This document shows positions 1-23,258 of a DNA stretch of 23,258 bases, one piece after another. Positions within the stretch are counted from its first letter, which is position 1. Each line of letters begins with the position of its first letter. The position numbers and the translations under genes are program-made. The stretch covers positions 1-23,258 of the IMG/VR virus record IMGVR_UViG_3300005713_000003; one strand, 5' to 3'. The notes beneath the pieces were generated by a model. It was not told where the DNA came from and did not search any database. It saw nothing but the letters and a program-made list of their open reading frames with translations. Source of the stretch: a virus.

Positions 1-30
1 TCCGCATGGTTTGCCGTCCTTTCGAGTGAA
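1..30. repeat. Terminal direct repeat, copy 1 (30 bp, identical to 23229..23258); signature of a circular genome or assembly overlap
   Basis: The string tccgcatggtttgccgtcctttcgagtgaa occurs at both extreme ends of the window. The minus-strand gene starting at 23235 has its start codon inside the repeat. Its RBS and promoter would lie across the junction. Confidence 0.95.
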
Positions 31-141
31 GTGAGTTTGCGCAGGCCTTCGAGCTTTGGTAAAGGGGGGTGGAGCCGGGGCGGTGGTGAGGCCGAAACAC
101 TGGTGTTAGTGGCCATCGTTTCCGGCGAGCTCTTATCGGTT

Positions 142-198
142 GCCGCACCTGGGGCTGGGGCGCTCCCCCCGCGCTACCCTTCACTCCCCAGGTGCGGC
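142..198. repeat. Perfect 13-bp inverted repeat (GCCGCACCTGGGG / CCCCAGGTGCGGC) with a 31-nt loop; candidate origin or regulatory hairpin
   Basis: Arms at 142..154 and 186..198 are exact reverse complements. The loop contains a nested GGGG-CGCT-CCCC mini-hairpin. It lies in a region without a convincing ORF. Confidence 0.6.
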
Positions 199-373
199 GT
201 ACCGACCATTGACGGTTCCGTTTCGAGTCGCTGAAGTGGTCTGGTGTAGGTGGATGCGAAAAGGCCGAAGCTGTTTGCCGAAGGGGCGCCGGCTTCGCCG
301 CGAGCACCACGATCAGCGGCTACGTTTCCTGCGTTCGAAGCCGCCGGGCCACCTAGCGATCATTCCGCGCCGC

Positions 374-547
374 ATGCCGTGGCACTTGCGCGACGCGGTG
401 ATCGAGGCGGCAACGCCGGCGCGCCGCGCGCGTCTCGAGCGGCGCCGGGCCCGCGCGTTGTTGCTGGGGGCGCTTCGCCTTCGGATCGCGTTGCTGGAAG
501 CTATCCCGGAATGCGCGTCGTCTCTCTGGTTGTACGGTGTGCCGTGA
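374..547 (+). CDS. Possible small, highly basic protein (57 aa; could extend to the ATG at 254); weak resemblance to ribbon-helix-helix regulators
   Basis: This is a sub-ORF of track ORF 140..547. It has very high third-position GC (about 84% by hand count), higher than the other frames here. There is no clear SD. The RHH resemblance (LAIIPRRMPWHLRDAVIEAA) is weak. Confidence 0.25.
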   Translation: MPWHLRDAVIEAATPARRARLERRRARALLLGALRLRIALLEAIPECASSLWLYGVP

Positions 548-718
548 TGGTGCACCCTGGGGCAACCGTGCCGGAGTGCTGAGCGGCGCTGGCCTGGGGA
601 GCAAGCGCGCAAAGTCTCCCGGGTTTCCCGCCAGCGTTCCGGGCGGTCGTTAATCGCCCCCTGCCTTCGTTGACGCGCCCCCAGCGCGCGTGTCGCGCCG
701 GTACCCCCCAGGGGTGAC

Positions 719-793
719 CCCCTCCCCTCCCCCGTGCCTCAGCGCGTCGCTGGCGCGCGGCAATCGGCATTGGGCGCCGGGGGAGGGGAGGGG
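719..793. repeat. 15-bp perfect G/C-tract inverted repeat (CCCCTCCCCTCCCCC ... GGGGGAGGGGAGGGG) with a 45-nt loop; G-quadruplex-capable on both strands
   Basis: 719..733 pairs perfectly with 779..793. Four or more G-runs occur at 772..793 on the + strand, and C-runs at 705..733 give G-runs on the - strand. It sits about 130 bp upstream of the first structural-operon gene. Confidence 0.7.
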
Positions 794-829
794 CCCTTGC
801 GTGGTGACCCATTCGTGGCCACTGATCGC

Positions 830-858
830 TTGACCCCTATCCGCAAGCGGTTCAATAT
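830..858 (+). promoter_or_regulatory. Candidate sigma70-like promoter for the + strand operon (TTGACC-N17-CAATAT)
   Basis: The -35 TTGACC is at 830..835 and the -10-like CAATAT at 853..858, with a 17-bp spacer. This is a locally AT-rich patch in a GC-rich intergenic region, about 60 bp upstream of the ATG at 922. Confidence 0.35.
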
Positions 859-921
859 CTGGTTACGTAAGCGCCGGACCCGGCACACGGGGGCGCTCTT
901 CCAACCGGAGCAACACCGCCC

Positions 922-1263
922 ATGGCCGATCAGGTTTCGTCGATCAGCACCGCACGCCAGTCAATCGAGCGCCTTCGTTCCCGTCTCGCGACCATGCGCG
1001 ATGAAGCAAAGTTGGCGGCAAAGACAGGTACGACGGCAGTCATCACGATCGGTGGCGGCGTTGCCGCCGGCGCGATCGCCTCGAAGATGCCCTATCTGCC
1101 CGGAACGCAGGTGCCCACCGCTGGCGCGATCGGCGCGGCGCTGATCACCGCGGCCATGACGGGCATGCTGGACGAGCACGGCGAGCAAGTGAGCGCCTTC
1201 GGTGCGGGCATGCTCGCGGCCATCGCGGCGCGCGAGACGGAAAAGGTCCTCGCGGCGGCCTGA
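922..1263 (+). CDS. Small multi-pass membrane protein (113 aa), function unknown
   Basis: ATG ORF with a charged N-terminal helix followed by Gly/Ala-rich hydrophobic segments (TAVITIGGGVAAGAIA, AGAIGAALITAAMTG, FGAGMLAAIAA). Third-position GC is high. Confidence 0.7.
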   Translation: MADQVSSISTARQSIERLRSRLATMRDEAKLAAKTGTTAVITIGGGVAAGAIASKMPYLPGTQVPTAGAIGAALITAAMTGMLDEHGEQVSAFGAGMLAAIAARETEKVLAAA

Positions 1264-1439
1264 GGTTTCGGGGCTGGCCGCGAAGTGAGGCGCGGCACGC
1301 CCTGGCTAATTTTCGCTGCCTGCGTGGGAGCGCCGGTTATGAGACGGCGCCGCCCGCCTGCGTGGCCCAAACGGCTGGTTGTCGCGTAGCGGTCGGTTCC
1401 GCCCACGTGCTGCCCGCGCATCGCCTTTCGAGGTGAAAA

Positions 1440-2090
1440 ATGGGTCTCTATTTTGGTGGTCCGGATGAAGCGGACTTCGGCAACGGCAGGCCTCCCGTGT
1501 GGGGTCAGCCTGGCTTGGCAGTCTATGCCCAGCCGCAATTCGGCAGCCCGGGGCCGGTAGTTTGGGGTCAGCCCAACGCCGGGTATCGCGGTGCGGCCTT
1601 CGGTGCGGATTACGAGATCATCGGCGCGTACGAGATTCTCGGTGACCCCACCTCGAGCCCTGCAAAGCAGGCGCTTGCACAGTCGATCATCGCGGCGAAG
1701 CAACTCGGTGGCAAGGCAGTGCTTCAGACGGCTCCTCGTCGGGAGTACTCCCAGGTTCTCCCGTGCACGTCGCTTGCCGTCACGACCGCTGACCCGGTGC
1801 GTGATATCGAGTTGAAGCCTCAGCGTCCGTTCCGCCCGGAGAAATTCCGCGCGAGCTCGACGCATACGGCGCCGTTTTTCGTGATCACCGCCTACTCGAT
1901 CGGTCAGGACAACCAGTTTGTCGGGCCCGGCTCGATCCCGGTGGACCTGTTCTCCGAGGTGGCTTTGTACTCTCAGATCGAGGCGTACACGGCCAACCTG
2001 GGTAACCTGATCACGATGACCGTCCAGAACATCGACGATGAAACGCGCGACTTCCGCGCGGCTTTCTTCGGCACGTCGCTGGGCAACTGA
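1440..2090 (+). CDS. Beta-rich structural protein candidate (216 aa); possible jelly-roll capsid or vertex protein
   Basis: A strong SD (AGGTG at 1431..1435) lies 4 nt before the ATG. The N-terminus is Gly/Pro-rich with a repeated VWGQP motif. The C-terminal ~120 aa alternates hydrophobic and polar residues as in beta sandwiches (FFVITAYSIGQDNQF...GNLITMTVQNIDD...AAFFGTSLGN). Confidence 0.75.
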   Translation: MGLYFGGPDEADFGNGRPPVWGQPGLAVYAQPQFGSPGPVVWGQPNAGYRGAAFGADYEIIGAYEILGDPTSSPAKQALAQSIIAAKQLGGKAVLQTAPRREYSQVLPCTSLAVTTADPVRDIELKPQRPFRPEKFRASSTHTAPFFVITAYSIGQDNQFVGPGSIPVDLFSEVALYSQIEAYTANLGNLITMTVQNIDDETRDFRAAFFGTSLGN

Positions 2091-2154
2091 TCGGCGGTTT
2101 GGGCAACGGCCGGGGGCGACTTCCAGCGCTCCCGGCCTTCACTCGAGAGAGTCT

Positions 2155-2589
2155 GTGCGTGCAATCGTTTCTTTGGTCGGTGTCGACGATGATGGTGTGC
2201 TGGCTGGCTTTGCTGAGCGCATTTTGGAGGTGGTGGTGGACAACAACCGCTATCTCATGCGGCGCAACCCCGGGAAGGTGCCACCCATCTATCAGAGCGG
2301 CGTTCGGTTTCGTCCCGAGCCGTGGGCGGGCCCAAACCCCGCTACTCCGCCGATCGAGCAATTCTGCCCGTACCCTGAGCTCATTGCTCGCGGTTGGGCT
2401 GACTGCGCGCAGCTATGCCCATGGGTGGTGGCTGAGGCCCGCGAGCACGGAGACCTGGGGGCTCGGCTTCGCTTCTACTGCCGCACGCAGGGTGACCCGC
2501 GCGATCCGGAGCGCCGGCGCTTCTATCACGTCGAGACGCGAGACGGTCGTGGTCGTATTTGGGACCCGTCGAGGCTTTTGGACTTTTGA
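2155..2589 (+). CDS. Transglutaminase/papain-fold cysteine peptidase-like protein (about 144 aa)
   Basis: The Cys-His-Asp arrangement is typical of transglutaminase-like cores: GWADCAQLCPWVVAEAREHG ... FYHVETRDGRGRIWDPS. The start is set to GTG 2155 because the upstream part of track ORF 2038.. overlaps the preceding gene. The exact start is uncertain. Confidence 0.6.
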   Translation: MRAIVSLVGVDDDGVLAGFAERILEVVVDNNRYLMRRNPGKVPPIYQSGVRFRPEPWAGPNPATPPIEQFCPYPELIARGWADCAQLCPWVVAEAREHGDLGARLRFYCRTQGDPRDPERRRFYHVETRDGRGRIWDPSRLLDF

Positions 2590-2677
2590 GGCGGCGCTTG
2601 CCGTCACTCTGATCGGCTCGTCCGCGCTGGGGCAGTGGCTCGAGGCGCGTGGGGTCGGCAACATCATTAGAGGATCC

Positions 2678-3040
2678 ATGGGAGCACTGTTCGGCTTGGG
2701 AGTGGCGGCGTTGGCGTGGTGGTGGCTCGGTCGCCACTACCCGGAAGGCGAAGGACCCTTCGATCATCTCCCCTCAGGGGTGACGAAAGGCACGCGGTCA
2801 GCGCCGTCGCGAGTTAAGGCCTCGAGCGGTCGTTCTTACGATACCTACACCTGGCCACCTGATTCGAGCGGACGTCAGTTTCATGTGGCGGAGCGCCCCG
2901 GCGCTGGTGCATGGATCTCGTATTGGGTCGATCGTGCCACGGGGGCTCGATCGCTTCACATGACGCGAACGCCGTTCGCGATGGGCTCCGCTTCAGACCT
3001 GTCTGAGGTGGCCGCACTCCGGAAGGACTTCGGAGCATGA
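2678..3040 (+). CDS. Small membrane protein (120 aa; alternative GTG start at 2549 would add a second TM helix)
   Basis: GAGGA lies just upstream of the ATG at 2678. There is an N-terminal TM segment (GALFGLGVAALAWWWLG). The stop overlaps the next start (ATGA at 3037..3040). The 5' part of track ORF 2099..3040 overlaps the previous gene and was discarded. Confidence 0.55.
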   Translation: MGALFGLGVAALAWWWLGRHYPEGEGPFDHLPSGVTKGTRSAPSRVKASSGRSYDTYTWPPDSSGRQFHVAERPGAGAWISYWVDRATGARSLHMTRTPFAMGSASDLSEVAALRKDFGA

Positions 3041-4542
3041 ATCCACTGGTTATCGGCGCTGGGGGCGCTGCGTTGTTGCTACTTCTCACGAGCAAGTCGA
3101 AGGCCTCGACGCCTTCGGCTCCCTCGACGCCTTCGGTTCCCGGTGCCCAGCCGCCCGGGAGCGTCGTCACGCCAACGGGGGCGGGCAGCGTCGCTGAGCG
3201 CGTTGCAAACGTGCTCGCCACTCAGGACCCGAACGCGATCCGCTTCGAGGCGGGTCGGCTCCGACAGGAAGGCTTCACCGCGCAAGCCGCTCAGCTCGAA
3301 GCCGTTGCGGCTCAGCTCGAGGCTCAGATCGCAGCGGGTCAGCGGCCACCCCCCGTGTACGTTCCACCGCCGGTGGTGACGGCGCCGCCGGTGACGACGC
3401 CGCCGATCGTCGTGCCAACGGCGCCCCCGATCGTGATCGTCTCGCCGGGCTTGCCGCCGGGCACCGTCACGTCCCCTGGGGTGCCTCAGCCGCCCGCCTC
3501 GACGATTCCCCAGCCGTTCCAGCCGTGGATCGACGGGGTGCCTCCCGAGCTCCAGAAGGTCGTCCTTCGGAAGGTGGCGGCGCCGGCGCCGTTCGATCCC
3601 AAGGTCCTGTTGTTGCAGGCCCGCTTGCTCGATCTGGGTTACAGCGTCGGCTCGAACGGCACGGACGGCAAGTTTGGAGCCGACACGGAGAAGGCGGTGA
3701 AGGCGTTCCAGAAGGCCAACAACCTGCCTCAGGACGGCATTGCCGGCGCCCTGACGATCGCTCGGATGGCTCAGCCCAGCGCGAAGCGCGGCCCGGGTGC
3801 GCCGCTGGTGACGGTTCCGACCGCGCCGCCACCTGCCTCGACGCTGCCCGCGCCGGGGCCATGGATCCAGGGGGTGCCCGCGGAGCTCCAGGGCGTGTTG
3901 CTGGTGAAGGTGTCACCGGCGCCGGTGGATCCGCGCGTCACCATTCTGCAGACCCGTCTCGCGGAGCTCGGGTACCTGAAGCCGGCCGACATTGATGGCA
4001 AGTTTGGGCCCACCACTGAGAAGGCGGTGAAGGCCTTCCAGACGAACGCGAAGCTGAAGCCGATCGATGGCAAGGTCGGGCCCGCCACGCTCGCGGCGCT
4101 CGCCGGCGCCGGCGCGGTGCGCATGCAGGGTGATGAAGCCTTCGGGTTCGACCCGGGTTTCGACCGGGCGCCACCGGAGCCCATCGCGGGCACCCCGCTC
4201 CCGGGGGTGATTCCGCCGATGGTTCCGAACAGCCCGGAGCCGCGCAAGGCGCTCGCGGCGCGCGTCGCGCTGATGCTGTTTGGCGCTCCGCCGGGGCAGG
4301 AAAACAAGACGCTGATCGCTGCCTTCCAGGCTCAGGAAGGACTCAAGGCGAGCGGCTTCTACGGGCCTGCAACGGCGGAGGCGCTCGCGGAAAACTACGG
4401 GATTATCCCGCCGAAGCCGCTCTATTGGAGCAAAAAGCACCAAACGAAGGCAAAGCAGGCCTACCGCGCGCGCTTGCTCGCCTTCGTGCCGGATGACCCC
4501 CAGCGCGCCGAAGAGTGGCAGCAGGCGGCGAAGGGCCTATGA
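3037..4542 (+). CDS. Membrane-anchored peptidoglycan-binding protein with two PG_binding_1 repeats and Pro-rich linkers (501 aa)
   Basis: There is an N-terminal hydrophobic anchor (VIGAGGAALLLLLT). Two clear PG_binding_1-type repeats are present (LLQARLLDLGYSVGSNGTDGKFGADTEKAVKAFQKANNLPQDGIAG and ILQTRLAELGYLKPADIDGKFGPTTEKAVKAFQTNAKLKPIDGKVG), plus a degenerate third (FQAQEGLKASGFYGPATAEAL). The internal ~100-aa tandem duplication is also visible at the nucleotide level. Confidence 0.85.
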   Translation: MNPLVIGAGGAALLLLLTSKSKASTPSAPSTPSVPGAQPPGSVVTPTGAGSVAERVANVLATQDPNAIRFEAGRLRQEGFTAQAAQLEAVAAQLEAQIAAGQRPPPVYVPPPVVTAPPVTTPPIVVPTAPPIVIVSPGLPPGTVTSPGVPQPPASTIPQPFQPWIDGVPPELQKVVLRKVAAPAPFDPKVLLLQARLLDLGYSVGSNGTDGKFGADTEKAVKAFQKANNLPQDGIAGALTIARMAQPSAKRGPGAPLVTVPTAPPPASTLPAPGPWIQGVPAELQGVLLVKVSPAPVDPRVTILQTRLAELGYLKPADIDGKFGPTTEKAVKAFQTNAKLKPIDGKVGPATLAALAGAGAVRMQGDEAFGFDPGFDRAPPEPIAGTPLPGVIPPMVPNSPEPRKALAARVALMLFGAPPGQENKTLIAAFQAQEGLKASGFYGPATAEALAENYGIIPPKPLYWSKKHQTKAKQAYRARLLAFVPDDPQRAEEWQQAAKGL

Positions 4543-4811
4543 CCTGGGGCTTTCCCGTCAACGCCGAGCTCGCGGCGGCCTGGCAACACACCTGGGAGCG
4601 AAAGTATCGCCCCCGGTGGGTGCAGGTCGGGAGCAAGTTCTATCCGCAAGGCGTGGCGCGAGCGTTGCCGCCTGCGCCCGACCCGCGCGCGCTCGAGCGG
4701 CTAGCGAAGGACGCGGATCGCACCGCGCGTAGGAACGCGCGCATCATGCGCCGGCGCGCAGCGGCGCGAGAGTGCATGCGACGGCTTCGAGCCGAAAGGG
4801 CTGGACAATGA
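4539..4811 (+). CDS. Hypothetical basic protein (90 aa)
   Basis: ATGA overlaps occur at both ends (4539..4542 and 4808..4811), indicating translational coupling with its neighbours. The C-terminus is Arg-rich and helical. Confidence 0.65.
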   Translation: MTWGFPVNAELAAAWQHTWERKYRPRWVQVGSKFYPQGVARALPPAPDPRALERLAKDADRTARRNARIMRRRAAARECMRRLRAERAGQ

Positions 4812-6205
4812 CGGCTCAGGACGATTTCGACACGGCAGCGGCGTTCGGTGACTCGGGCGAGATGGCCTCGATCTGGGGTGCGGCGAGCGTTGCTCAGACG
4901 GGCAACTTTCTCGAAGCGACGCGCGTTCCGCTCGCGGCTCCGAAGGCGCTGGCGCCGGTGAAGGCCGTTCAGATCAGCACGGCCGCGAAGCTTCCAACCG
5001 TCAACGTCTCCACCTCGAAGGGAGCAACGAAGGCGCCAGCGATCGCAGTGCCAACGAAGCCAGCCGCGGCGAAGGCGCCGGCGGCGCCGGCGAAGGCCGC
5101 GCCGGCGCCGGCCTCGACGAAACCAGCCATCACCGCCGGCGGTCTTCTGTCGGGTGTGCAGGCGGGCATTTCGAACGCCGTCACTACGGCATTGAATGCC
5201 GGAACGGGTGGCTTCGCTCCCAATACGATCCCGCCTGGGGTCAAGCTCGACGTGTTCTCGCTCAACCTGCTGAATACCGTTCCGGGTGCGCGGGTCGTGA
5301 TGTCGAAGGACGGGAAGTATTCGGTGGAGACCCCGAAGGCGGCGCCGGCGCCGGCCGGCACGAAGCCGACGCTGACCGATGCCGAGCGAGCCGCGAACGC
5401 TGAAGCGATCAGGCAAGCCGCGAACCGCACGGCCAACATCAACGCCGCGCCGGGTGGCTACAGCGATCAGCGCACGGATGCGCACGCGCGCGCGGTGGCG
5501 CTCAACAACCTGATCGCCGAAGGGCCAGCGGGCAAGGCGGGAACGGACCTGGATCAATTCATCATGGGAGGCAAGGTCCTGGCCGCCGGCGCTGCCATCA
5601 TCGCGTCGGGTGGAACGGCGGCAGGCGGGCTCGGACTCACGGCTGGCGCGGGCTCGCTCGCCGCGGCGGCCAGCGCCGATCGGTTGCTGAGCGCGATCGA
5701 GACGGGTGGTGCGATCGGCAAGCAAGCGACGGCCGTCCTGAACGAAGCGAAGGCAGCCGCGGCGAAGGGCGATGCGATCGCGAAGACGGCGCTCGACGTG
5801 GTGGCGGACGTGAGTGCCGACCGCATCGCGGCGAAGGTGCCCGCTGGTGTCAAGCAAGTCCTGAGCGTCAACGCGAAGGATGCGCTCGCGACCGTGGCGA
5901 GCATGCCGGCGGTGACGACCGCGCTGGCCGCGGCCAATGCTTCGAGCGGCGGCTACATGACGACGCCGCTCACCACGAAGCCCCATGCGACGGCTCCCGT
6001 CGTCAACCAAGCCACGAAGCAAATTCTTGCAACCGTCCAGGTGCCTCGCGCGCTTTGGCTGGTGTCGAACGCGGGAGGCATCACGAGCCTCACGCAGACC
6101 CCCAATGCGGCATGGTCGGGCGGCTTCGTGGTCTTCTCTTCGGGACTCGTGATGCGGCAGACAGCCGAAGCCGCGGCGCTCGCCGCAAAAGGCGTGGCAG
6201 CGTGA
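4808..6205 (+). CDS. Ala/Lys/Pro-rich low-complexity protein with a Gly/Ala-rich hydrophobic segment (465 aa); structural or DNA-delivery candidate
   Basis: The start is set to the ATG at 4808 (ATGA overlap). Repeats of KPAAAKAPAAPAKAAPAPASTKPA type occur near the N-terminus. A hydrophobic stretch (VLAAGAAIIASGGTAAGGLGLTAGAGSLAAAA) is present. Third-position GC is high. No catalytic motif was recognised. Confidence 0.75.
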   Translation: MTAQDDFDTAAAFGDSGEMASIWGAASVAQTGNFLEATRVPLAAPKALAPVKAVQISTAAKLPTVNVSTSKGATKAPAIAVPTKPAAAKAPAAPAKAAPAPASTKPAITAGGLLSGVQAGISNAVTTALNAGTGGFAPNTIPPGVKLDVFSLNLLNTVPGARVVMSKDGKYSVETPKAAPAPAGTKPTLTDAERAANAEAIRQAANRTANINAAPGGYSDQRTDAHARAVALNNLIAEGPAGKAGTDLDQFIMGGKVLAAGAAIIASGGTAAGGLGLTAGAGSLAAAASADRLLSAIETGGAIGKQATAVLNEAKAAAAKGDAIAKTALDVVADVSADRIAAKVPAGVKQVLSVNAKDALATVASMPAVTTALAAANASSGGYMTTPLTTKPHATAPVVNQATKQILATVQVPRALWLVSNAGGITSLTQTPNAAWSGGFVVFSSGLVMRQTAEAAALAAKGVAA

Positions 6206-16167: not shown

Positions 16168-16301
16168 CGGAATTTATGCTGGCGCACCCGATACTCAGCC
16201 TGATCGGCTGGTGTTGGGCATGGTTTTGCTTTTGGATGGGGTTGGCCGCCGCTGGTGAGATAGCTGAAAGAAAAGAGATTGACAATGAACGGACCGAATA
16301 A
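16164..16301 (+). CDS. Possible 45-aa single-TM micro-protein coupled to rep (below the ORF-track size cut-off)
   Basis: ATGA overlap with the rep stop (16164..16167). The sequence is MTEFMLAHPILSLIGWCWAWFCFWMGLAAAGEIAERKEIDNERTE. Its 3' end overlaps the next gene by 17 nt. Confidence 0.35.
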   Translation: MTEFMLAHPILSLIGWCWAWFCFWMGLAAAGEIAERKEIDNERTE

Positions 16302-16841: not shown

Positions 16842-17083
16842 TGAAAAACAGATCGCTTTGGTTCGCTAAGGAAGGTGTTTCGGGTTGCTTTAGCCGGTGC
16901 GGCAAATGCGCTAAGGAGATGAAGGACGATGGGATTCACGTCCGCGTCGGTAATGAGGTGTTGGCCATTGTTTGTGGCGAATGCTTTCAGGCTGTCAGTC
17001 AGAGTATCTCTGAGGCATACCCTCACTCGATCGTTGATTGCGACGAAAGGGGGCGTCTGGTGGTGAAGGGTGACCCGTCGTGA
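16838..17083 (+). CDS. Small zinc-ribbon protein (81 aa) with visibly lower GC than its neighbours; also ends in VVKGDPS
   Basis: It has CFSRCGKC ... CGEC (Cx3Cx2C...Cx2C). Many codons end in A or T, unlike flanking genes. The gene is exactly bracketed by the 25-bp direct repeats. Confidence 0.65.
   Translation: MMKNRSLWFAKEGVSGCFSRCGKCAKEMKDDGIHVRVGNEVLAIVCGECFQAVSQSISEAYPHSIVDCDERGRLVVKGDPS
17059..17083 (+). repeat. 25-bp perfect direct repeat, copy 2
   Basis: Identical to 16817..16841; spacing is 242 bp. Confidence 0.95.
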
Positions 17084-17349
17084 GTGGGTATCTGGAGGAC
17101 CTAGCGCCTCACCTCGATGGCAAAGACGTTGCTCTCTTGCTGGCCTTTCTGGAGCAAATGGAAAGGGAAATGCAGGAAGACGCGCTCAGGCGCTACAGCT
17201 TCACTCGCGACGCCGAAGGGTACACGCTGCGCGTCACGTTTCTCGAAGGCGGCCTGATCGTTGGCCGTGGTGTGACGATCAGCGAGGCTGTCAAGTCGCT
17301 ATCGAGCGAGCTGATCAGGGAGGGATTGAAGGGGGCTGGCCGTGGCTGA
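17080..17349 (+). CDS. Hypothetical protein (89 aa) with a weak HicB/UPF0150-like pattern
   Basis: GTG start in a GTGA overlap. YSFTRDAEGYTLRVTFLEGGLIVGRGVTISEAVKSLSSELIRE loosely fits the HicB-type N-terminal domain pattern. No HicA-like partner was seen. Confidence 0.6.
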   Translation: MSGYLEDLAPHLDGKDVALLLAFLEQMEREMQEDALRRYSFTRDAEGYTLRVTFLEGGLIVGRGVTISEAVKSLSSELIREGLKGAGRG

Positions 17350-17719
17350 TCGGTACCTGCCGCCTGAGAGAATGACCTTTTCGTATGGTGACGATGGGAA
17401 GCCGGTGCTCAATGAGCGGCGGCCCGCGTGGGTGTGTTTCGCGTGCGGGCATGAATCCTTTGACCTTGCTGCGCACGACTTCCCTTGCCCCGATTGCTCT
17501 CGTGCGCCGGGCTGGACGACTCGCCCCCGGGAGGCGCGGCGTGCTGTTCGTTTGCACCGGCTTCGTGTCGCGGGTCGGCTGACACCCGCCGAGTGCGCCG
17601 CGCTCATGCGCAAGGTGACTACAGTGTGGGCCTTCCCTCGCTCTACAGGTGACGGCAACGCTGCCGTTCAGGTGGAGCATGGGGCAACCGAAGCGATCGA
17701 ATCAGCCGAAGACGGGTAG
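17342..17719 (+). CDS. Zinc-ribbon protein (125 aa)
   Basis: GTG start overlapping the previous gene by 8 nt. It contains CFACGHESFDLAAHDFPCPDC (CxxC...CxxC). Confidence 0.6.
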   Translation: MADRYLPPERMTFSYGDDGKPVLNERRPAWVCFACGHESFDLAAHDFPCPDCSRAPGWTTRPREARRAVRLHRLRVAGRLTPAECAALMRKVTTVWAFPRSTGDGNAAVQVEHGATEAIESAEDG

Positions 17720-17864
17720 CTTGCGCGAGTCGTTGCGCTCGCTGGACGCGACGCGGGCCCGATTGTTTCCGGTGGCGGCGCTGCAACAGTGGCGCGTGGA
17801 TAACGCTCGCCTGTATGTGCGCGGTGCAGCGCCGCCGGCGGCGCGTAGCGCTGGACGTCGCTGA
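17679..17864 (+). CDS. Possible small basic protein (61 aa)
   Basis: A good SD (GGTGGAG) lies 3-4 nt before the ATG at 17679. Third-position GC is about 74%. It overlaps the 3' end of the previous gene by 41 nt. Confidence 0.35.
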   Translation: MGQPKRSNQPKTGSLRESLRSLDATRARLFPVAALQQWRVDNARLYVRGAAPPAARSAGRR

Positions 17865-17876
17865 CCCTGGAGTGGC

Positions 17877-18440
17877 ATGCTCCGCCCCGGCATGGGGCGA
17901 CGTTCTCATTTGCGGCTGGTGAGTGCTCCACCACGGCCGGCCACCGAAGCTGAGCTCGACGTCATTCGCAACGGGCCGCCGGCGGCGCTGCGCGTGAGTG
18001 CATGCGCTGGTGCGATCGAGCACTTGCAAGCGGAGTGGGATCAGCGAAAGCGCCCGGAAGACGAAAACTGGCGACTTCCCGAGCCTGAGCCTGAGAACCG
18101 CCTAGCGACGCGCGCAGCGGTGCGCGGCGCTTTGCTTTGGGGCATCAAACAGCATCGTCTGATGAACCATGGGACCGAGCGGCCTCAGCCGATCGACGAC
18201 TGGCGACGTCCAATGCCGCCCTGGGAGCGTGTGAATTTGTATGTGCTGGGGGCAACGTTTTGGACTGAAAGCCTCGATGCGTTGGTGCGTGGTCAGGCGG
18301 ACCGGGCAACGAAAGGCATTCTGATTGCAGTGGCGGCAGGGACTCTATCGCTGAACGAAGCGCTGAGTCAGTTGCGCGACGTGCGGGGGTGGTTAGAAAA
18401 GCTGGGGCACCTTCGTGCCCTGAAAGGTGATCACGAGTGA
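17877..18440 (+). CDS. Hypothetical protein (187 aa)
   Basis: The ATG is preceded by GGAGTGG. The stop overlaps the next start (GTGA at 18437). No motif was recognised. Confidence 0.7.
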   Translation: MLRPGMGRRSHLRLVSAPPRPATEAELDVIRNGPPAALRVSACAGAIEHLQAEWDQRKRPEDENWRLPEPEPENRLATRAAVRGALLWGIKQHRLMNHGTERPQPIDDWRRPMPPWERVNLYVLGATFWTESLDALVRGQADRATKGILIAVAAGTLSLNEALSQLRDVRGWLEKLGHLRALKGDHE

Positions 18441-18799
18441 GCGAGCCAGAAACGACGCCGATCAACGAAGCTGCGAGCGAGCCCGAAGAGCCGAAGACCG
18501 CGCCGAAGAGCGAGGCTCAGCTGAAGCGCGATGGGCTGGGAACGCTGATCATGATGCTGTTGCCGATGGTGCTGAAACAACTCTATCCGGACCCGGATCC
18601 ATTGGATGAGCCTGATGAAAAGGACGATGAAGCGGAGCGGGAGCCGATCGAAGAGTGGTCGGTCACGATGGCAGTGGTAGGCGACGGCGGCGTTGCAGAC
18701 ATTCCGCGGCCCAACGGTGATGGGTGGCTGGCGTACGGTCATCGGGTGGAGCCGGGGAGCGTCACCATGCTTTGGCGCCGGGAGCGAGACGCGAAGTGA
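18437..18799 (+). CDS. Acidic protein with a central TM segment (120 aa)
   Basis: GTGA overlaps at both ends. It has a TM segment (LGTLIMMLLPMVL) and an Asp/Glu/Pro-rich linker. Confidence 0.65.
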   Translation: MSEPETTPINEAASEPEEPKTAPKSEAQLKRDGLGTLIMMLLPMVLKQLYPDPDPLDEPDEKDDEAEREPIEEWSVTMAVVGDGGVADIPRPNGDGWLAYGHRVEPGSVTMLWRRERDAK

Positions 18800-19101
18800 C
18801 CCGGGCGGCCCGGCGCGCAAAGAGGCGCATCGCGATCGACGCGCGCAAGCTCGAAGCGAAGCGGCGCCTCGCTGGCGAAGCCGCCGGGCCACCGCCGGCG
18901 CCGGACCGGACGGCGCCGGGGCACCGGGTGCGGCCGACGCGCGCCCCCGGGCGACGCAAGGCGCCGGTCTGGGCAACCCTATCGGCCCTGTTGGCGGTCG
19001 ACACGCTGGTGACGTTGCAGCCGCGGGCCTTCGAGCAACGCATCGCGCTGGCGCGCGAGCTCAGGCGCGAGCGGGAGCGGCTCAGGGCGCGTCGTGGCTA
19101 A
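18796..19101 (+). CDS. Arg-rich basic protein (101 aa)
   Basis: GTG at 18796 in a GTGA overlap, a sub-ORF of track ORF 18724..19101. It contains a hydrophobic segment (VWATLSALLAVDTLV). Confidence 0.5.
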   Translation: MTRAARRAKRRIAIDARKLEAKRRLAGEAAGPPPAPDRTAPGHRVRPTRAPGRRKAPVWATLSALLAVDTLVTLQPRAFEQRIALARELRRERERLRARRG

Positions 19102-19375
19102 AAAACCGCCACGCTCGAAGCTCGAGCAACTGATTCGCGATCGTCGGTTGCCGGGCTGGAAGAGCCGGGCGCAAGAGGCGCTCGAAACGGCGGAAGTGAG
19201 AAAAGCCGCGGTGGCTGAAGCCGACGCGGCGAAAAAGGCAGAGAAAGCGCGGTTTCAGCAGTCCGTTGACGAAAACGTGGCGCGCGCGAATGCCTGGGGA
19301 GCTGAGCAGATTGCCAACGGCCTGAGGGAGCGGCATGAGGCATTTTTGCGTCGCAAGGGGGGTGATACAGGTTGA
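19094..19375 (+). CDS. Helical charged protein (93 aa)
   Basis: GTG start overlapping the previous stop by 8 nt. The sequence is Lys/Glu/Ala-rich and helical. Confidence 0.6.
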   Translation: MAKKPPRSKLEQLIRDRRLPGWKSRAQEALETAEVRKAAVAEADAAKKAEKARFQQSVDENVARANAWGAEQIANGLRERHEAFLRRKGGDTG

Positions 19376-19414
19376 CGCTTATTTAAGTGGCAGGGATGCT
19401 ACGATTCATGTTGC

Positions 19415-19774
19415 ATGGATCCGTTGCTGCCATCGCCCGAAGGTTTGGAACGCTGGTTGACCGCGCAAAACGTCGCGATCGTGGTCCTGGTGTTGTGGGT
19501 GCTGTCGTTGCACCGGCTTTTGTCCCGCTCGATGAAGAGGAGCGAGACCTTATCCGATCAGTTGACCCTAAGCACAGAACGCGCATGGCACGCGCGCTGG
19601 AAGGACGCCGAAGACTTCGGACTCAGGCTCGACTCCTCTCAGCGCAACACGCTCGAAGCCTTCGTGTCTGCTGCGACGCGGCGAGCACGGCCGGCGAGCT
19701 CTACTCTGCATGGTGCGACGCGGCCAGCGCCACCACCGCCACCGCCTCAGCCGAAGCCGAAGCCGACAACGTGA
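19415..19774 (+). CDS. Single-pass membrane protein (119 aa) with a Pro-rich C-terminus
   Basis: Third-position GC favours this frame over track ORF 19387..19962 for the first ~90 codons. It has a TM segment (VAIVVLVLWVLSL). No SD is present. An AT-rich patch with TTGACG (19372..19377) lies upstream. Confidence 0.55.
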   Translation: MDPLLPSPEGLERWLTAQNVAIVVLVLWVLSLHRLLSRSMKRSETLSDQLTLSTERAWHARWKDAEDFGLRLDSSQRNTLEAFVSAATRRARPASSTLHGATRPAPPPPPPQPKPKPTT

Positions 19775-19962
19775 TGGCTCAGTTCGTCGAGCTCGCGGAC
19801 GAGACGGATTTCGAGGTGGCAACCAGCGACTTCGTGGAAGACGCGGCGCCCAATTCGGATCGGCCGCCGGCGTTGCCGCATGCGGGCGAGTCGGGCCTTC
19901 GCTACGTGCCTGATCTGCAACTGGAGTACTCCCTAGGCAACCCCTGGACGTCGAAAGGCTGA
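19771..19962 (+). CDS. Small acidic protein (63 aa) immediately upstream of the spike gene
   Basis: GTGA overlap with the previous stop (19771..19774). Third-position GC in this frame is high from about 19690 onward. Confidence 0.45.
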   Translation: MMAQFVELADETDFEVATSDFVEDAAPNSDRPPALPHAGESGLRYVPDLQLEYSLGNPWTSKG

Positions 19963-19972: not shown

Positions 19973-22174
19973 ATGGCTATTGATGTTCTGACTACGCGCC
20001 GCTCTCCCAGCGGCAAGATCGACCCGCTCGCGGACGTTGCGTGGCGTTCGCGCGGTGACGGCGCAACGGTTCGAAGCTTGTATACTCGCGATCAGGATCT
20101 GATCTGGGTGACGGACTTCATGTCGTTGGAAGAGCAGATCGATGCCTATGCGGGGAGTCTGCTGTATGACGCTTCGCCAGCGAATCAGAACGCGATCGAT
20201 TATGCCGTCTACAAAGACGAGCTCGCGGACTCGGGAGGTGGCCCGCGAGTGCGCATGCCCGGCGCGCTGATGCGCATCGATCGGACGATTCAGGTGGGCT
20301 ATGGGATCGACTTCCGAGCGGTCGTCTTCGAGGGCGAAGGGATGCGATCGGGCGGGACGAATCACAAGCAAGCGAGCGGGACGTGTCTCTTCCAGACGTT
20401 CAACGACGCGCCGGGCATCAACGTCCAGGGCGGTCGCAACGTGGTGGTGAGAGGCTTCAGCATGCTGGGGCCGAATGGGCTTTGGCTCTTCAACTTGATC
20501 CAGGGCGAGACGATGGGGGTTCTCAACGTTGCCAACTGGATCGATCCCGATTTCCCCGCGAGCGCTTCATCGCGCTACGCGCCGCTCGCTGGCATCGCGA
20601 TCGATGCGTACAGTGGGCCTCAGCCGGTGGTGCACTACCCTGACGTTGACTATCCTGCTTTCCTGGGGCCGGTGGCTCAGTACAACAAAGGGGCTTCGAG
20701 CAACACTCTTATCGAAGACGTGATGATCGACGGTTACTATGTTGCAATCGTGCAACAGCCGGGAGATTACGACGGCAACGGCGACTACACGCATATCAAC
20801 CGGGCGATCGTGCTTCGGTGCGCGTATGCGTTCAGCTGGGGCAACAGCCAGTCGCGCGTGCCGACCGTCGAGAACTGTGCTTTCGACTCGGTGCATACGA
20901 CGTTCTCCACAGCGACCTTCGGAAAGCAGATCGGGCAACCGGGCCTGGCTTGCTACTCGACGGCGTGGAGCCGGTGCGTTCAAATGTTCGACATTCGGAC
21001 GCTCAGCTACGGTCAAGGGCCGTCGTTCTACAATTGCTATGCCGAAGCGATCTATCGCATTGGCACGCTGGGCAATGCCGCTGAGACGGCGGGCTCCGTG
21101 CTCTTCTCCGGGTGCGATCTGGGCTTCAGTTGGTGGGAGACCTATGGCGTGCCTGTCTACATTCTTGACAACCGCTGCACCAGCGTCGTCACCTTTCAGA
21201 GTTGCTTCTTTGGAGGCTTCAGGAACGACACCTGGGGAGGCTTCGCTTTCTTTGGCACGGACGCTGGCGCCGATGGCGAGACGGCTCGCGGCTTCGCTTT
21301 CCGCGAGTGCACCATGTTCCACGTTGCCGGGCCGCCGTCGCAGCGCTGGGCTCAGTGCGCGTACAACGCCACTCAGGGCTTCAGCTTTAACAAGGCAGCG
21401 ACGACGCTGGAATACTACTCGTTTCGAGCGCCCAACGTCTTCAACCTCGACACGGGTGCAAACCTCAGCGTCTCTCTCTTCTCGCACGCCAACATCGCGC
21501 CGCGCAATCGGTGCATGCCATCCTACAGCGAGCGCGTGAAGTGCTCGATTCGTGGTGACGCTGGCTTTCCCGTGTCGTTGCCGGCGCGCTTCATCGAAGC
21601 GAACGGCGCCGGCGGGGTGATCACTCAGGTCGGGCGCAATATCACCTTCACGTTCTCTGGGGTGGATGCCGACTTCCTGAGCTATTCGGGTGGTGGCGTT
21701 GGCGACGTGATTCAGAGTCGAGCCACCGGGGCGACCTTCTGGGTGTACGCGCGCACGGGTGACGTGATCAGCGCTCAGGCTCAGACTGGCTTCGATAAGA
21801 ACGAAAACCTTCTGACCCCGCTGCCCAATGGCGATGTCTTCGATACCATCAATTGCCGGGTCTACTCCCCCAGCGCGAGTGCGGACGTGCTCTATGCCGA
21901 TATGGTGGCAGGCAGCCCAGTGCTGCTGAATGTCGTCAACGGGGAGGGTTTGGCGCCTACCACGATCGGTTCCTACGTGTCGGTGGGAGACTGGTTTTTC
22001 CCATCGTACTACGTGGATTCGATCGTCAACCCGTTCGGTGGCAACGGTAGGATCCAGTCGATCGACAACACCGCGAAGACGATAACGGTGGGCGGCAATT
22101 TCAAGCAAGACTTGCTGCATTGGCGAATGGGTCTGATGATTCGTCCCGAGATGGCAAACGGTACGCCTGCCTGA
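19973..22174 (+). CDS. Right-handed beta-helix (pectate-lyase-fold-like) spike / receptor-binding depolymerase candidate (733 aa)
   Basis: This is the largest ORF. The N-terminal region resembles the Pectate_lyase_3/tailspike start (VTDFMSLEEQIDAYAGSLLYDASPANQNAIDYAV...VRMPGALMRIDRTIQV). It is followed by many ~25-aa segments rich in N/G/S/C with aromatic caps, typical of parallel beta-helix coils. The C-terminal ~200 aa form a separate beta-rich domain. Confidence 0.75.
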   Translation: MAIDVLTTRRSPSGKIDPLADVAWRSRGDGATVRSLYTRDQDLIWVTDFMSLEEQIDAYAGSLLYDASPANQNAIDYAVYKDELADSGGGPRVRMPGALMRIDRTIQVGYGIDFRAVVFEGEGMRSGGTNHKQASGTCLFQTFNDAPGINVQGGRNVVVRGFSMLGPNGLWLFNLIQGETMGVLNVANWIDPDFPASASSRYAPLAGIAIDAYSGPQPVVHYPDVDYPAFLGPVAQYNKGASSNTLIEDVMIDGYYVAIVQQPGDYDGNGDYTHINRAIVLRCAYAFSWGNSQSRVPTVENCAFDSVHTTFSTATFGKQIGQPGLACYSTAWSRCVQMFDIRTLSYGQGPSFYNCYAEAIYRIGTLGNAAETAGSVLFSGCDLGFSWWETYGVPVYILDNRCTSVVTFQSCFFGGFRNDTWGGFAFFGTDAGADGETARGFAFRECTMFHVAGPPSQRWAQCAYNATQGFSFNKAATTLEYYSFRAPNVFNLDTGANLSVSLFSHANIAPRNRCMPSYSERVKCSIRGDAGFPVSLPARFIEANGAGGVITQVGRNITFTFSGVDADFLSYSGGGVGDVIQSRATGATFWVYARTGDVISAQAQTGFDKNENLLTPLPNGDVFDTINCRVYSPSASADVLYADMVAGSPVLLNVVNGEGLAPTTIGSYVSVGDWFFPSYYVDSIVNPFGGNGRIQSIDNTAKTITVGGNFKQDLLHWRMGLMIRPEMANGTPA

Positions 22175-22196
22175 GGCGAGAGAGGCTGATTCAGCG

Positions 22197-22313
22197 ATGC
22201 AATGGTTATCGGAGCACTGGGGAACGATCGTCACGGTGGCGAGCCTGATTCTGAACGCGCTGGGAGGCGCGGGAATCGTCAAGCCGCTTCGGAAGTCGAC
22301 TCCCAGCGAGTGA
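22197..22313 (+). CDS. Possible 38-aa single-TM micro-protein (below the ORF-track cut-off)
   Basis: The sequence is MQWLSEHWGTIVTVASLILNALGGAGIVKPLRKSTPSE. Third-position GC is high. It lies between the spike stop and the bidirectional terminator. The SD (GAGAGAGG) is rather distant. Confidence 0.3.
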   Translation: MQWLSEHWGTIVTVASLILNALGGAGIVKPLRKSTPSE

Positions 22314-22320
22314 AAGGCAG

Positions 22321-22351
22321 CGGGCGACCTGATCGTCGATCAGGTCGCCCG
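22321..22351. terminator. Bidirectional terminator candidate between convergent genes (15-bp perfect palindrome arms)
   Basis: CGGGCGACCTGATCG-T-CGATCAGGTCGCCCG. It sits 9 nt beyond the stop of the minus-strand gene at 22360 and downstream of the + strand spike operon. Confidence 0.7.
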
Positions 22352-22359
22352 GTGTTGCT

Positions 22360-22587
22360 TCATCGCTTCGAGGCCTTGCGTTTCGGATTCGGCTTCGGTG
22401 GCGGCGTTGGGTTGTCAGGGTCAGGGTCGCCCGGTGGAATCAGCCGGTTGCCGACCACCTGGACGTTGCCATCGTCCGGTTCGGGCTCAGCGGACCCGCA
22501 GACTTGCCAGCTATCACCGTTCCAATACCCGACTTCGGGGCGAGCTTTTGGGAAGAGACGGATCCAGTAAAAGCCTGAGTCTCGCAT
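22360..22587 (-). CDS. Hypothetical protein (75 aa) with a Pro/Asp-rich, Lys-rich tail
   Basis: Minus-strand ORF and last gene of a three-gene minus-strand operon. It has a compact Trp/Tyr-rich N-terminal domain (GFYWIRLFPKARPEVGYWNGDSWQVCG). Confidence 0.6.
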   Translation of the reverse strand: MRDSGFYWIRLFPKARPEVGYWNGDSWQVCGSAEPEPDDGNVQVVGNRLIPPGDPDPDNPTPPPKPNPKRKASKR

Positions 22588-22592
22588 CGCGT

Positions 22593-22826
22593 TCAGAACG
22601 GCACGTCATCTTCTGGGGGTGGCTCGGGTGTGTCTTCGCGTTGCTCGTGTATGAACATCACCAGTCGCCCGCTGGGGAGAAAGCGGTTCCAAAGCTCGAT
22701 GCTGAAACCGTCCTTTTCACGCAGCGGAAACGCCGTGCCGATTTGCCAGAAGGTCGTCTTCTCTTCGCCGCTGGACGTTTTGTACTGCCGCGGAACCATC
22801 ACGTTATACCGTTTGCCTGCTGCCAT
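22593..22826 (-). CDS. Small putative ssDNA-binding protein with an SSB-type acidic C-terminal tip (77 aa)
   Basis: The C-terminus ...PEPPPEDDVPF mimics the bacterial SSB tip (E. coli SSB ends DDDIPF). The N-terminal ~60 aa are beta-rich (TTFWQIGTAFPLREKDGFSIELWNRFLPSGRLVMF), compatible with a minimal OB-like or DUF736-like fold. Confidence 0.5.
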   Translation of the reverse strand: MAAGKRYNVMVPRQYKTSSGEEKTTFWQIGTAFPLREKDGFSIELWNRFLPSGRLVMFIHEQREDTPEPPPEDDVPF

Positions 22827-23235
22827 CTTCGATTCTTTCTGTTGTGAGGCGCCGAGCCCGAAGGATCGGCGTGGGAATGTAGGGACCAGCCGCGCCGATG
22901 ATTGGGCGGTTCTCCAGGTGGGCGGTGATCAGCAGTGGTTGAATGGTGAAAAGCCACTCGGACACTTCGAACCGATCGACCTTGCATTGGCCGTTGCAAC
23001 AGCACTCGACGTCGCATGCGTCGTCAATCTTCGTGACTTCGGTGGGGTTGCCGTTGGCGTCCAGCATTACGAGGTGATCGCACCACGACCCGCAATCGGG
23101 GCACATCTGGTGCCCGCATGCATCGCAGCGTGGCGACGGTGGAATGGCGATCGCGCCTTCGAGGTAGGCGTTTTGTTCCGGGTCATCGGTCGCGAGTTGC
23201 TGGCCGTCGTGGAGTGTGATCAGTCGAGTCCGCAT
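22804..23235 (-). CDS. Cys-rich (zinc-binding) protein (143 aa); first gene of the minus-strand operon
   Basis: It contains CDACGHQMCPDCGSWCDH and CDVECCCNGQC clusters. Third-position GC is high. Its start codon lies inside the terminal repeat, and AAGGA would precede it across the circular junction. It overlaps the next gene by 23 nt. Confidence 0.6.
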   Translation of the reverse strand: MRTRLITLHDGQQLATDDPEQNAYLEGAIAIPPSPRCDACGHQMCPDCGSWCDHLVMLDANGNPTEVTKIDDACDVECCCNGQCKVDRFEVSEWLFTIQPLLITAHLENRPIIGAAGPYIPTPILRARRLTTERIEDGSRQTV

Positions 23236-23258
23236 GGTTTGCCGTCCTTTCGAGTGAA
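23229..23258. repeat. Terminal direct repeat, copy 2 (identical to 1..30)
   Basis: Exact 30/30 identity with the first 30 bases of the window. Confidence 0.95.

Follow-up and report, generated by a model that had tools for sequence, protein, structure and literature searches.

A complete circular 23-kb element with jelly-roll-like core proteins and no packaging ATPase, a candidate tailless phage of an undescribed lineage

What is a circular element that carries a plasmid-type rolling-circle initiator and a phage lysis cassette, yet encodes no recognizable packaging motor? The question is raised by IMG/VR virus record IMGVR_UViG_3300005713_000003, positions 1 to 23,258, a stretch of 23,258 nt (G+C 64.7%) that is analysed here over its full length and referred to as the window. 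An earlier note on this DNA had proposed either a new tailless lineage recalling PM2 or FLiP or a phage-plasmid hybrid. The reading developed below, to which we give roughly an even chance, is that the window represents, in full, the circular genome or replicative form of an undescribed lineage of tailless, ATPase-less jelly-roll phage.

Bases 1-30 of the window are identical to bases 23229-23258, with no longer terminal overlap, leaving a unique length of 23,228 bp; an overlap of 30 nt is what an assembler run at k=31 would be expected to leave on a circular contig. The feature reads as follows.

1-30, strand not applicable: direct repeat of 23229-23258 at the contig ends, the overlap left when a circular molecule is assembled

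When the 733-aa protein described below is looked up, two Logan assemblies, SRR5262245 and SRR5262246, prove to contain the same 23,258-nt contig, opened at window position 16432 in one and, in reverse orientation, at 22828 in the other. Each stored Logan stretch matches the doubled circle letter for letter, and the one that starts at 16432 (L001) crosses the window junction 23228/1. A single 23,228-bp circle is thus linearised at three different points, which shows the element to be complete and circular, as had been supposed from its identical 30-bp ends; the overlap is exact, and the permuted assemblies break elsewhere. Almost all coding lies on the + strand, the − strand holding only two short divergent clusters. 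Cumulative GC skew climbs near-monotonically round the whole circle, the coding strand having more G than C almost everywhere, a course that fits one-directional replication and transcription. Scans of the window for tRNAs and Rfam families return nothing, and a repeat search finds only low-complexity GC-rich repeats besides the terminal overlap. A hydrophobic segment is present in ~13 open reading frames (ORFs), several of them core genes; the ten or more small membrane proteins that had been reported are not confirmed as such, since not all of these ORFs are small and some are doubtful genes.

The element has relatives. Twelve related loci, on metagenomic contigs of about 15-31 kb (given L numbers here), were compared and have in common a colinear module, with ~11 kb conserved. 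It runs from a 113-aa protein through the 216-aa protein, a Cys/His/Asp protein, a small transmembrane protein and a peptidoglycan-binding protein, and then through a protein of ~350-510 aa, the 276-aa protein, a small transmembrane protein with a lysin, a 270-aa helix-turn-helix (HTH)/coiled-coil protein, a 98-aa protein and a GT-A glycosyltransferase-like protein. A distant relative of 22.3 kb (L035) retains the 216-like, Cys/His/Asp, peptidoglycan-binding, 276-like and glycosyltransferase-like genes, its 276-aa homologue matching at E 5e-15. Two members of the module are conserved β-rich proteins.

6555-7385, + strand: 276-aa core protein, two tandem 8-stranded β-sandwiches (double-jelly-roll-like) in an AlphaFold2 model
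1440-2090, + strand: 216-aa protein, the family's most conserved gene, with a C-terminal single-jelly-roll-like sandwich; candidate capsid or penton protein

The 276-aa protein has 44 homologues (41-57% identity), all metagenomic, and a profile search among 1.84 billion protein representatives (soil and groundwater data) gathers 346 clusters at 50% identity; the best 150 of the 346 are almost all stand-alone proteins of 200-320 aa. An AlphaFold2 model built on a 43-sequence alignment (predicted local distance difference test, pLDDT, 84.8; predicted template-modelling score, pTM, 0.75) contains a disordered N-terminus followed by two sandwiches of ~8 strands, the second of which has short helices, one of them after the strand taken as F'. 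In a Foldseek search of the PDB, the major capsid protein (MCP) of FLiP (5oac) ranks second (E 1.3e-4, prob 0.98, template-modelling (TM) score 0.26, root-mean-square deviation (rmsd) 14.5 Å) and is the best viral structural match. Other matches of similar length are peptidylglycine alpha-hydroxylating monooxygenase (PHM; ranks 4 and 5) and PNGase F (rank 14), accompanied in the list by vicilins, CUB-EGF-CUB proteins and birnavirus VP2. Few cellular proteins adopt the double jelly roll seen in viral capsid proteins, and PHM and PNGase F are two of them (Krupovic et al. 2022, PMC8812541), so that the match set as a whole is a double-jelly-roll set. Matches to structures in BFVD are weak. The model makes the 276-aa protein a candidate MCP, of the kind that in Bamfordvirae has two jelly rolls and builds pseudo-hexameric trimers.

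Searches at the sequence level give no such connection. Alignment of the 276-aa family with FLiP MCP by hhalign returns a probability of 0.05%, that is, no sequence link; 81 diverse family members yield no significant PHROG match and no PDB match by profile; and hhalign detects no relation between the 276-aa and 216-aa families.

The 216-aa protein has 66 homologues, again all metagenomic, at 47-77% identity. Its AlphaFold2 model comprises a disordered 52-residue Gly/Pro-rich N-terminal arm, two helices and an 8-stranded C-terminal sandwich. Foldseek returns nothing below E 0.019 for this model, and its weak matches are of jelly-roll type, namely the P domain of furin/Kex2, nucleoplasmin, coat proteins from a cucumovirus and a luteovirus, a PBCV-1 capsid protein and, at E 0.14, PM2 P2. 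No match to the protein is found in the PDB (by profile), in PHROG or in GenBank phage records. The 276-aa and 216-aa models are both all-β sandwiches, and neither has the HK97-type α/β fold. In L004, a 302-aa second paralogue of the 216-aa protein (10563-11471; 28% identity, E 3e-10) directly follows the 276-aa homologue.

Several observations weigh against a jelly-roll phage. The fold matches of the 276-aa protein reach TM-scores of only 0.22-0.31 at rmsd >10 Å, with a CUB-domain protein as the top match; the model therefore shares topology with its matches, not close geometry, and the resemblance may be just the topology of two β-sandwiches. The 216-aa model has a pLDDT of 63 overall (70-87 in the sandwich) and no significant structural match. 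Structure models cover only these two proteins; that another ORF hides a capsid fold is unlikely. Neither sequence nor profile searches yield a match to any known capsid protein; no family member is found in IMG/VR scans or among GenBank phages, the family being known from genes alone; the genomes of jelly-roll viruses known to lack an ATPase measure 7-11 kb, under half the length of the window (PMC5894146); and Rep_1, the family of the initiator described below, is mainly a plasmid family, with one relative of the element encoding a ParA. The likening to PM2 and FLiP consequently stands in part: the 276-aa protein models as two jelly rolls with FLiP MCP at rank 2, which lends the idea its first direct, if weak, support, but the TM-scores are low and there is no sequence link.

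The same fold matches bear on whether the element could be a virus of another architecture, either pleomorphic or enveloped (plasmavirus- or pleolipovirus-like) or of unknown type, in which the β-sandwich proteins would be spikes, carbohydrate-binding proteins or enzymes. Capsid TM-scores are low, and PHM, PNGase F, CUB and vicilin-type structures match the 276-aa model equally well; hydrophobic segments recur among core genes, a packaging ATPase is missing, and a core glycosyltransferase-like gene together with peptidoglycan-binding proteins suggests surface chemistry. A holin-endolysin cassette, however, suits lytic release more than budding, and the broad 276-aa family has a single invariant Asp instead of an enzyme-like set of invariant polar residues. 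The listed 276-aa homologues are, moreover, nearly all stand-alone and as uniform in size as capsid proteins, and among viral structures it is FLiP MCP that matches best. We consider this alternative rather unlikely.

The absence of a packaging motor was pursued by scanning the circularised sequence in all six frames for [GA]xxxxGK[STQ]. Three matches result, each in an implausible stop-to-stop frame (45-103 aa); the claim that the element lacks a Walker A motif, made from inspection by eye, is thereby upheld. No credible packaging-type Walker A occurs in the relatives scanned either, their only credible Walker A protein being the ParA of L031. Double-jelly-roll viruses without an ATPase are already known in the FLiP-like and Odin groups (PMC8812541, PMC5894146), and since these viruses also manage without one, the missing ATPase is no argument against a virus.

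Library searches complete the inventory of what is present and absent. Pfam makes three confident assignments in the window (Rep_1, Phage_lysozyme and PG_binding_1 x3), and PHROGs adds two families without a name, one for Rep (2e-25) and one for 11019-12110 (1.4e-7). The remaining small ORFs and the − strand ORFs (Pfam and PHROGs) and the ten largest proteins (NCBIfam) give nothing relevant; a few small ORFs were scanned in one library, and four of the smallest in none. Among the ORFs tested, Pfam and PHROGs contain no match to terminase, portal, HK97 capsid, tape measure or recombinase/integrase, and NCBIfam agrees for the ten largest proteins. The stated lack of tailed-phage and recombinase genes is in keeping with these results, the lone weak exception being the 98-aa ORF discussed below (E 0.01). 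Conjugation, mobilisation, resistance, metabolic and toxin-antitoxin cargo genes are likewise absent from the window by Pfam.

Several known classes can be set aside on these grounds. A tailed phage (Caudoviricetes) is rejected by the lack of a terminase, portal or HK97 match and of a Walker A motif, and by the all-β models of two core proteins. An inovirus would have a Zot/pI-type ATPase and tiny coat proteins and would leave the cell by extrusion without lysis, and the window has no Walker A and does have an endolysin; only the Rep domain resembles those of two small phages. An integrated prophage is rejected for want of an integrase and of flanking host genes. Placement in Helvetiavirae (P23-77/sphaerolipovirus-like), whose two single-jelly-roll capsid genes adjoin each other and a packaging ATPase gene, also fails, as there is no ATPase and the 216-aa and 276-aa genes lie 4.5 kb apart; P23-77 VP16 and VP17 are not among the top 50 structural matches of the 216-aa and 276-aa models.

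Lack of a packaging enzyme in the window and in every relative is also what might be seen in a satellite or defective element needing a helper virus for packaging and perhaps for its capsid, and the HTH/coiled-coil core protein could in that case redirect helper machinery. These elements, however, measure ~15-31 kb and possess their own lysis cassette, entry enzymes and candidate capsid proteins, exceeding known satellites in size and self-sufficiency; they additionally have no integrase and no similarity to helper-type genes. We judge dependence on a helper to be very improbable.

The confident Pfam assignments concern replication, lysis and peptidoglycan binding. Replication is represented by an initiator gene and by a conserved block upstream of it.

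14686-16167, + strand (ORF 14533/14686-16167): Rep_1 (HUH) rolling-circle initiator, Pfam PF01446, PHROG 11698
14563-14596, + strand: conserved non-coding block TGAACGCCTCGGCAG-N2-GGGA-N6-TCCGTCC, candidate double-strand origin or Rep nick/binding site
L003 12970-13003, L004 18091-18124, L018 393-426 and L028 18923-18956, upstream of rep: the same block in relatives (approximate positions)
L029 19022-19055 and L031 8764-8797, upstream of rep: the same block in further relatives (approximate positions)

Rep matches PF01446 at E 2.9e-11 (43.7 bits, cut-off 33.2) and PHROG 11698 at 2e-25. Three catalytic motifs, FxTxT, HPHIH and YLxK, are invariant across five relatives (F74/T76/T78, H135-P-H137-I-H139 and Y283..K286), and the alignment additionally shows an invariant N-terminal Cys cluster (HTCKSxxCxxC) and extended forms of motif I (FxTxTxRH), the HUH motif (GWHPHIH) and motif III (YLxKxGLE). 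Together these matches and motifs confirm the Rep_1 HUH initiator named in the earlier note. The first 170 residues are ~30% identical to rolling-circle plasmid Reps (Streptomyces pJV1-like, Acinetobacter, Bifidobacterium and others) and also match replication proteins from two small phages (6.7-7.3 kb; probably inoviruses); the C-terminal half (~300 aa) is family specific. Rep_1 is found in every relative whose rep region was covered.

The 34-nt block emerged from a k-mer comparison of regions upstream of rep and ends ~90 nt before the rep start. It occurs in seven loci including the window, with 0-1 mismatch in a 14-nt core, at loci whose Reps are only 32-48% identical. It is the best candidate for the double-strand origin, and a likely origin or Rep-binding site. 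The classical nick motif CTTGATA is not present in the window, and the candidate origin is predicted to fold no more stably than shuffled sequence, with no conserved hairpin at the block.

A replication protein of this type raises the possibility that the element, as a rolling-circle plasmid or something plasmid-like, never gives rise to particles and carries a module for remodelling the cell envelope. The Rep catalytic domain is nearest to plasmid Reps of Streptomyces, Acinetobacter and others; Pfam and PHROGs detect no capsid, portal or terminase by sequence; IMG/VR scans recover no family member; and in L031 (28.7 kb) a ParA-type ATPase (CbiA/MipZ/AAA_31; 11485-11934) lies beside and downstream of rep, which hints that some members persist as plasmids. 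Beyond Rep, however, the window contains no relaxase, coupling protein, VirB4/TraB-type ATPase or Walker A, nor does Pfam detect resistance, metabolic or toxin-antitoxin cargo in it. The pairing of a small transmembrane protein with a lambda-R-type endolysin after it constitutes a phage lysis cassette, and the elements keep ~11 kb of colinear genes that lack cellular homologues while their replication genes vary. Two GTDB scans, covering 185,579 species genomes, give no relative and thus no host. A particle-free plasmid is, in our estimation, decidedly unlikely, and a conjugative or mobilisable plasmid is rejected by the lack of relaxase, coupling-protein and VirB4/TraB-type Pfam matches and of a Walker A. 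The phage-plasmid hybrid that had been offered alongside a tailless lineage has only indirect support, in the ParA of L031; the window itself has a plasmid-type Rep and a lysis cassette but no partition gene, and its structural genes are candidates.

Lysis and peptidoglycan binding are assigned to three genes.

7787-8005, + strand: 72-aa protein with a strongly hydrophobic segment (Kyte-Doolittle 2.57), overlapping the lysozyme start; holin candidate
7996-8640, + strand: GH24 lysozyme (endolysin), Pfam PF00959 Phage_lysozyme, 4e-27
3037-4542, + strand: 501-aa membrane-anchored protein with Pro-rich linkers and three PG_binding_1 domains, Pfam 1.3e-43

The endolysin shares 42-44% identity with lambda-R-type endolysins from phages of proteobacteria, and its position behind a small membrane protein accords with the holin-lysozyme pair that had been reported; L004 and L028 encode non-homologous small transmembrane proteins at the holin-candidate position. 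Lysozyme residues 158-214 (window 8467-8640) form a Pro/Ala-rich linker, a hydrophobic stretch and a CPSC motif that are not in the closest phage homologues, an extension that may act as a membrane tether. The 501-aa protein, previously named as peptidoglycan-binding and now seen to have three such domains, has an N-terminal transmembrane segment and belongs to the core genes, 9 loci having it; its NCBIfam matches are confined to the binding domains, and the searches detect no catalytic domain.

The remaining core and distal genes on the + strand are as follows.

922-1263, + strand: 113-aa Gly/Ala-rich core protein, always immediately upstream of the 216-aa gene; candidate membrane or virion protein
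2155-2589, + strand: 144-aa core protein with invariant Cys/His/Asp; candidate papain/transglutaminase-like cysteine peptidase
2546-3040, + strand: conserved protein of ~164 aa with one predicted transmembrane segment, start uncertain
4808-6205, + strand: 465-aa Ala-rich protein with a central hydrophobic segment, partly conserved
8633-9454, + strand: 273-aa core protein with an HTH-like N-terminus, a long coiled coil and a C-terminal NGK motif
10298-10675, + strand: 125-aa protein with a C-terminal membrane anchor, kept in some relatives
10686-10982, + strand: 98-aa β-rich or hydrophobic conserved protein, in 5 loci
11019-12110, + strand: 363-aa core protein with GT-A glycosyltransferase-like motifs (FIDHDI, GLGFTAIP, GEDISF, DTRxRxFHxGSYxYG)
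16164-19962, + strand: ~14 small ORFs following rep, with little conservation and no family match
19973-22174, + strand: 733-aa protein, candidate receptor-binding spike or depolymerase, with a 52%-identical homologue in L004

The 113-aa protein is found in 9/11 loci, with 56-64% identity in L004, L006, L007 and L008, and has no Pfam or PHROG match. In the 144-aa protein, an alignment of 8 relatives reveals the invariant pattern GDCAQLC...HV...IxDxSR; the label "transglutaminase-like" is not sustained as a family assignment, there being no Pfam or PDB profile match and just the invariant Cys/His/Asp pattern, from which a cysteine peptidase is predicted. The ~164-aa protein is 40-43% identical to relatives by tblastn, and a public gene call merges upstream sequence into it to give a 283-aa ORF. 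The 465-aa protein is 39-40% identical over aa 189-451 in L003, L007 and L008, with a faint PHROG match (E 0.02).

The N-terminal ~75 aa of the 273-aa protein look like an excisionase/MerR-type HTH. The protein has 13 homologues in addition to those in the loci and no significant Pfam or PDB match, and it is a candidate genome-binding, scaffold or packaging-adaptor protein. The match of the 98-aa protein to PHROG 584 "major tail protein" (E 0.01, covering 74 aa of a 218-position profile) is not significant. The 363-aa protein is 35-60% identical across the family, including distant L035, and matches PHROG 1574 at 1.4e-7; its family profile gives weak matches only in the PDB, among them the STIV A197 glycosyltransferase at E 0.13, and distant homologues occur on 8 IMG/VR contigs that are otherwise unrelated to the window. 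The gene is tandemly duplicated in two distant relatives (L026 16808-18448 and L035 6213-7664).

After the glycosyltransferase-like gene, a perfect GC-rich hairpin (CTCCCCGAAGG...CCTTCGGGGAG) occupies 12113-12150, and beyond it 12160-12290 is a 130-nt, comparatively AT-rich spacer with repeated CGAAG; the hairpin and spacer (12113-12290) are probably the end of the long operon. The region of small ORFs downstream of rep is presumed to be an early or accessory region. For the 733-aa protein, a β-helix spike had been proposed; this label did not hold up, no match being found in Pfam, PHROGs, NCBIfam or the PDB, even when the protein was searched as a two-sequence profile.

The − strand contributes two divergent clusters.

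13349-13840 and 13841-14437, − strand: two paralogous Cys-rich zinc-ribbon-like genes, divergent from rep
22360-23235, − strand: three-gene divergent cluster encoding proteins of 75 aa (22360-22587), 77 aa (22593-22826) and 143 aa, Cys-rich (22804-23235)

The Cys-rich paralogues have in common the motif RPTxADLxRW...IRILIAEVxRL. Their codon-position GC values (0.73/0.55/0.73 for 13349-13840 and 0.68/0.53/0.74 for 13841-14437) are better than those of the overlapping + strand frame, and one of them matches a rep-adjacent gene of L018 (E 1.6e-5); because of these codon statistics, the mutual paralogy and the L018 match, the − strand pair is taken as real. The 451-aa + strand ORF at 13211-14566, a public gene call, is rejected as a gene, as it has no homologue in any relative, and is probably a shadow of the two − strand genes.

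Homologues of the second cluster occur in L004, L028, L007 and L008. Its 77-aa protein ends in DDVPF, the tip of single-stranded-DNA-binding protein (SSB), and homologues 50-52% identical to it end in DDIPF (L004 3782-4009, −) and DGLPF (L028 4737-4964, −). The 75-77-aa proteins retain only the acidic C-terminal tip of SSB, and L006-L008 have full-length SSB (PF00436, ending DDIPF) at the same place. The SSB-tip protein recognized in the earlier note is thus corroborated at the level of the motif, by its own terminus, those of its homologues and its SSB-equivalent position.

Across the family, several functions are carried by alternative genes. Lysins belong to Phage_lysozyme, Phage_lysozyme2 or DUF2272; the large protein at the distal end is of the 733-aa type or an unrelated, non-homologous 595-aa pectate-lyase protein (PF12708), which stands at the position of the 733-aa gene in L028; and SSB is full length or a 75-77-aa tip protein. 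Such swapping of lysis, spike and SSB genes for analogues is typical of phage modules.

The family comes from Hainich groundwater (0.1-µm fraction) and from forest and rhizosphere soils, and a metagenome scan adds 16 contigs, most of them short, from the same groundwater and from soils. Megablast with the full window finds no match in 50,697 phage or 72,556 plasmid (PLSDB) records; tblastn of the 216-, 276- and 733-aa proteins finds none in GenBank phage records; IMG/VR scans with the 276-aa protein and the family alignments A1 and A2 give no relative; and in the literature no described ATPase-less rolling-circle jelly-roll family of such size was found, nor any paper on the two run accessions. 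The relatives appear to constitute a coherent and previously undescribed family.

If the element is indeed a jelly-roll phage, its life cycle can be sketched from the gene content. Rep would nick at or near 14563-14596 and initiate rolling-circle replication by host enzymes, with the displaced strand handled by host SSB and the 77-aa SSB-tip protein perhaps tying it to SSB-client proteins. The long + strand operon at 922-12110 would build the virion, in which the 276-aa two-jelly-roll protein would form the shell as MCP, the 216-aa single-jelly-roll-like protein would serve as a second capsid or vertex protein, and several membrane proteins would furnish an inner membrane or a genome-delivery device. 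On entry, the peptidoglycan-binding protein and the Cys/His/Asp protein may open the cell wall, with the 733-aa protein as receptor-binding spike, and the holin candidate and lysozyme would free progeny by lysis. Enclosure of the genome without a motor might proceed by assembly around DNA condensed by the HTH/coiled-coil protein (8633-9454) or by coupling to Rep-driven strand displacement, two routes that have been discussed for the FLiP and Odin groups (PMC5894146, PMC8812541). A bolder version, in which the family would be a new high-rank lineage of tailless, motor-less phages with genomes of ~17-31 kb, possibly of single-stranded DNA (ssDNA) spooled off Rep-driven replication, strikes us as improbable.

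Tailless phages are badly under-sampled, and this family was missed by the viral catalogues checked (IMG/VR, GenBank phages and PHROGs). Should the family prove viral, the 346 clusters of its capsid-like protein represent a sizeable uncharted group, for which the 216-aa protein, the 276-aa protein and the conserved block upstream of rep supply markers. A 23-kb member would, if true, stretch the size limit assumed for motor-less encapsidation (7-11 kb in known cases) and, on the bolder version above, would be a large-genome counterpart of FLiP, itself at the proposed base of the double-jelly-roll virus kingdom; were its genome ssDNA, 23 kb would make it by far the largest ssDNA bacterial virus. 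Double-jelly-roll viruses have been proposed to arise from plasmid-like replicons before gaining an ATPase (PMC8812541), and on the jelly-roll reading the element would bear directly on such an origin.

Among known systems, the element works most like FLiP and PM2, yet it is a member of neither family: Corticoviridae or Finnlakeviridae membership is rejected by a different Rep family, the lack of an ATPase (in the case of PM2), the lack of a sequence link and a genome 2-2.5x larger. With Rep_1 plasmids (pC194/pUB110/pJV1-type) it shares only Rep, whose catalytic domain has the three motifs and ~30% identity, a conserved cis element upstream being the likely origin. These plasmids are mostly <15 kb and have no lysis cassette or 11-kb module, and the classical CTTGATA nick motif is absent from the window.

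The Odin group, described from metagenomes (Yutin et al. 2018) and compared here by description only, resembles the element in combining a double-jelly-roll capsid-like protein without an ATPase with a conserved single-jelly-roll protein and sporadic lysozyme and glycosyltransferase genes (PMC5894146). Its genomes, from marine sediment, are 7-11 kb and encode ParB, a PD-(D/E)XK nuclease or PolB, in contrast to Rep_1 in the window.

PM2 and the autolykiviruses have in common with the element circular DNA, a rolling-circle initiator, a double-jelly-roll capsid protein of ~270 aa (for which the 276-aa protein is only a candidate here), many small membrane proteins and plasmid-like replication modules (PMC5894146). 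All PM2-group genomes keep an FtsK-like packaging ATPase adjoining the capsid gene (PMC5894146), whereas no FtsK/HerA-type ATPase, indeed no credible Walker A in six frames, is encoded in the window or, as to packaging, in its relatives. PM2 additionally has a genome about half the size of the window, bearing out the size and ATPase contrast drawn in the earlier note, and a different Rep family, and its P2 matches only the 216-aa model.

FLiP has a 9.2-kb ssDNA genome, against 23.2 kb for the window, which is known here from sequence alone; its Rep is of the Phage_CRI family (PF05144, M13-like) instead of Rep_1 (PF01446), and its MCP, for all its structural rank, has no sequence or profile similarity to the 276-aa protein. 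What the element does hold in common with Finnlakeviridae (FLiP and phiCjT23-like phages) is a circular genome with all or almost all genes on one strand, an HUH initiator, a lytic enzyme and the ability, on the reading favoured here, to do without a packaging ATPase (PMC8812541).

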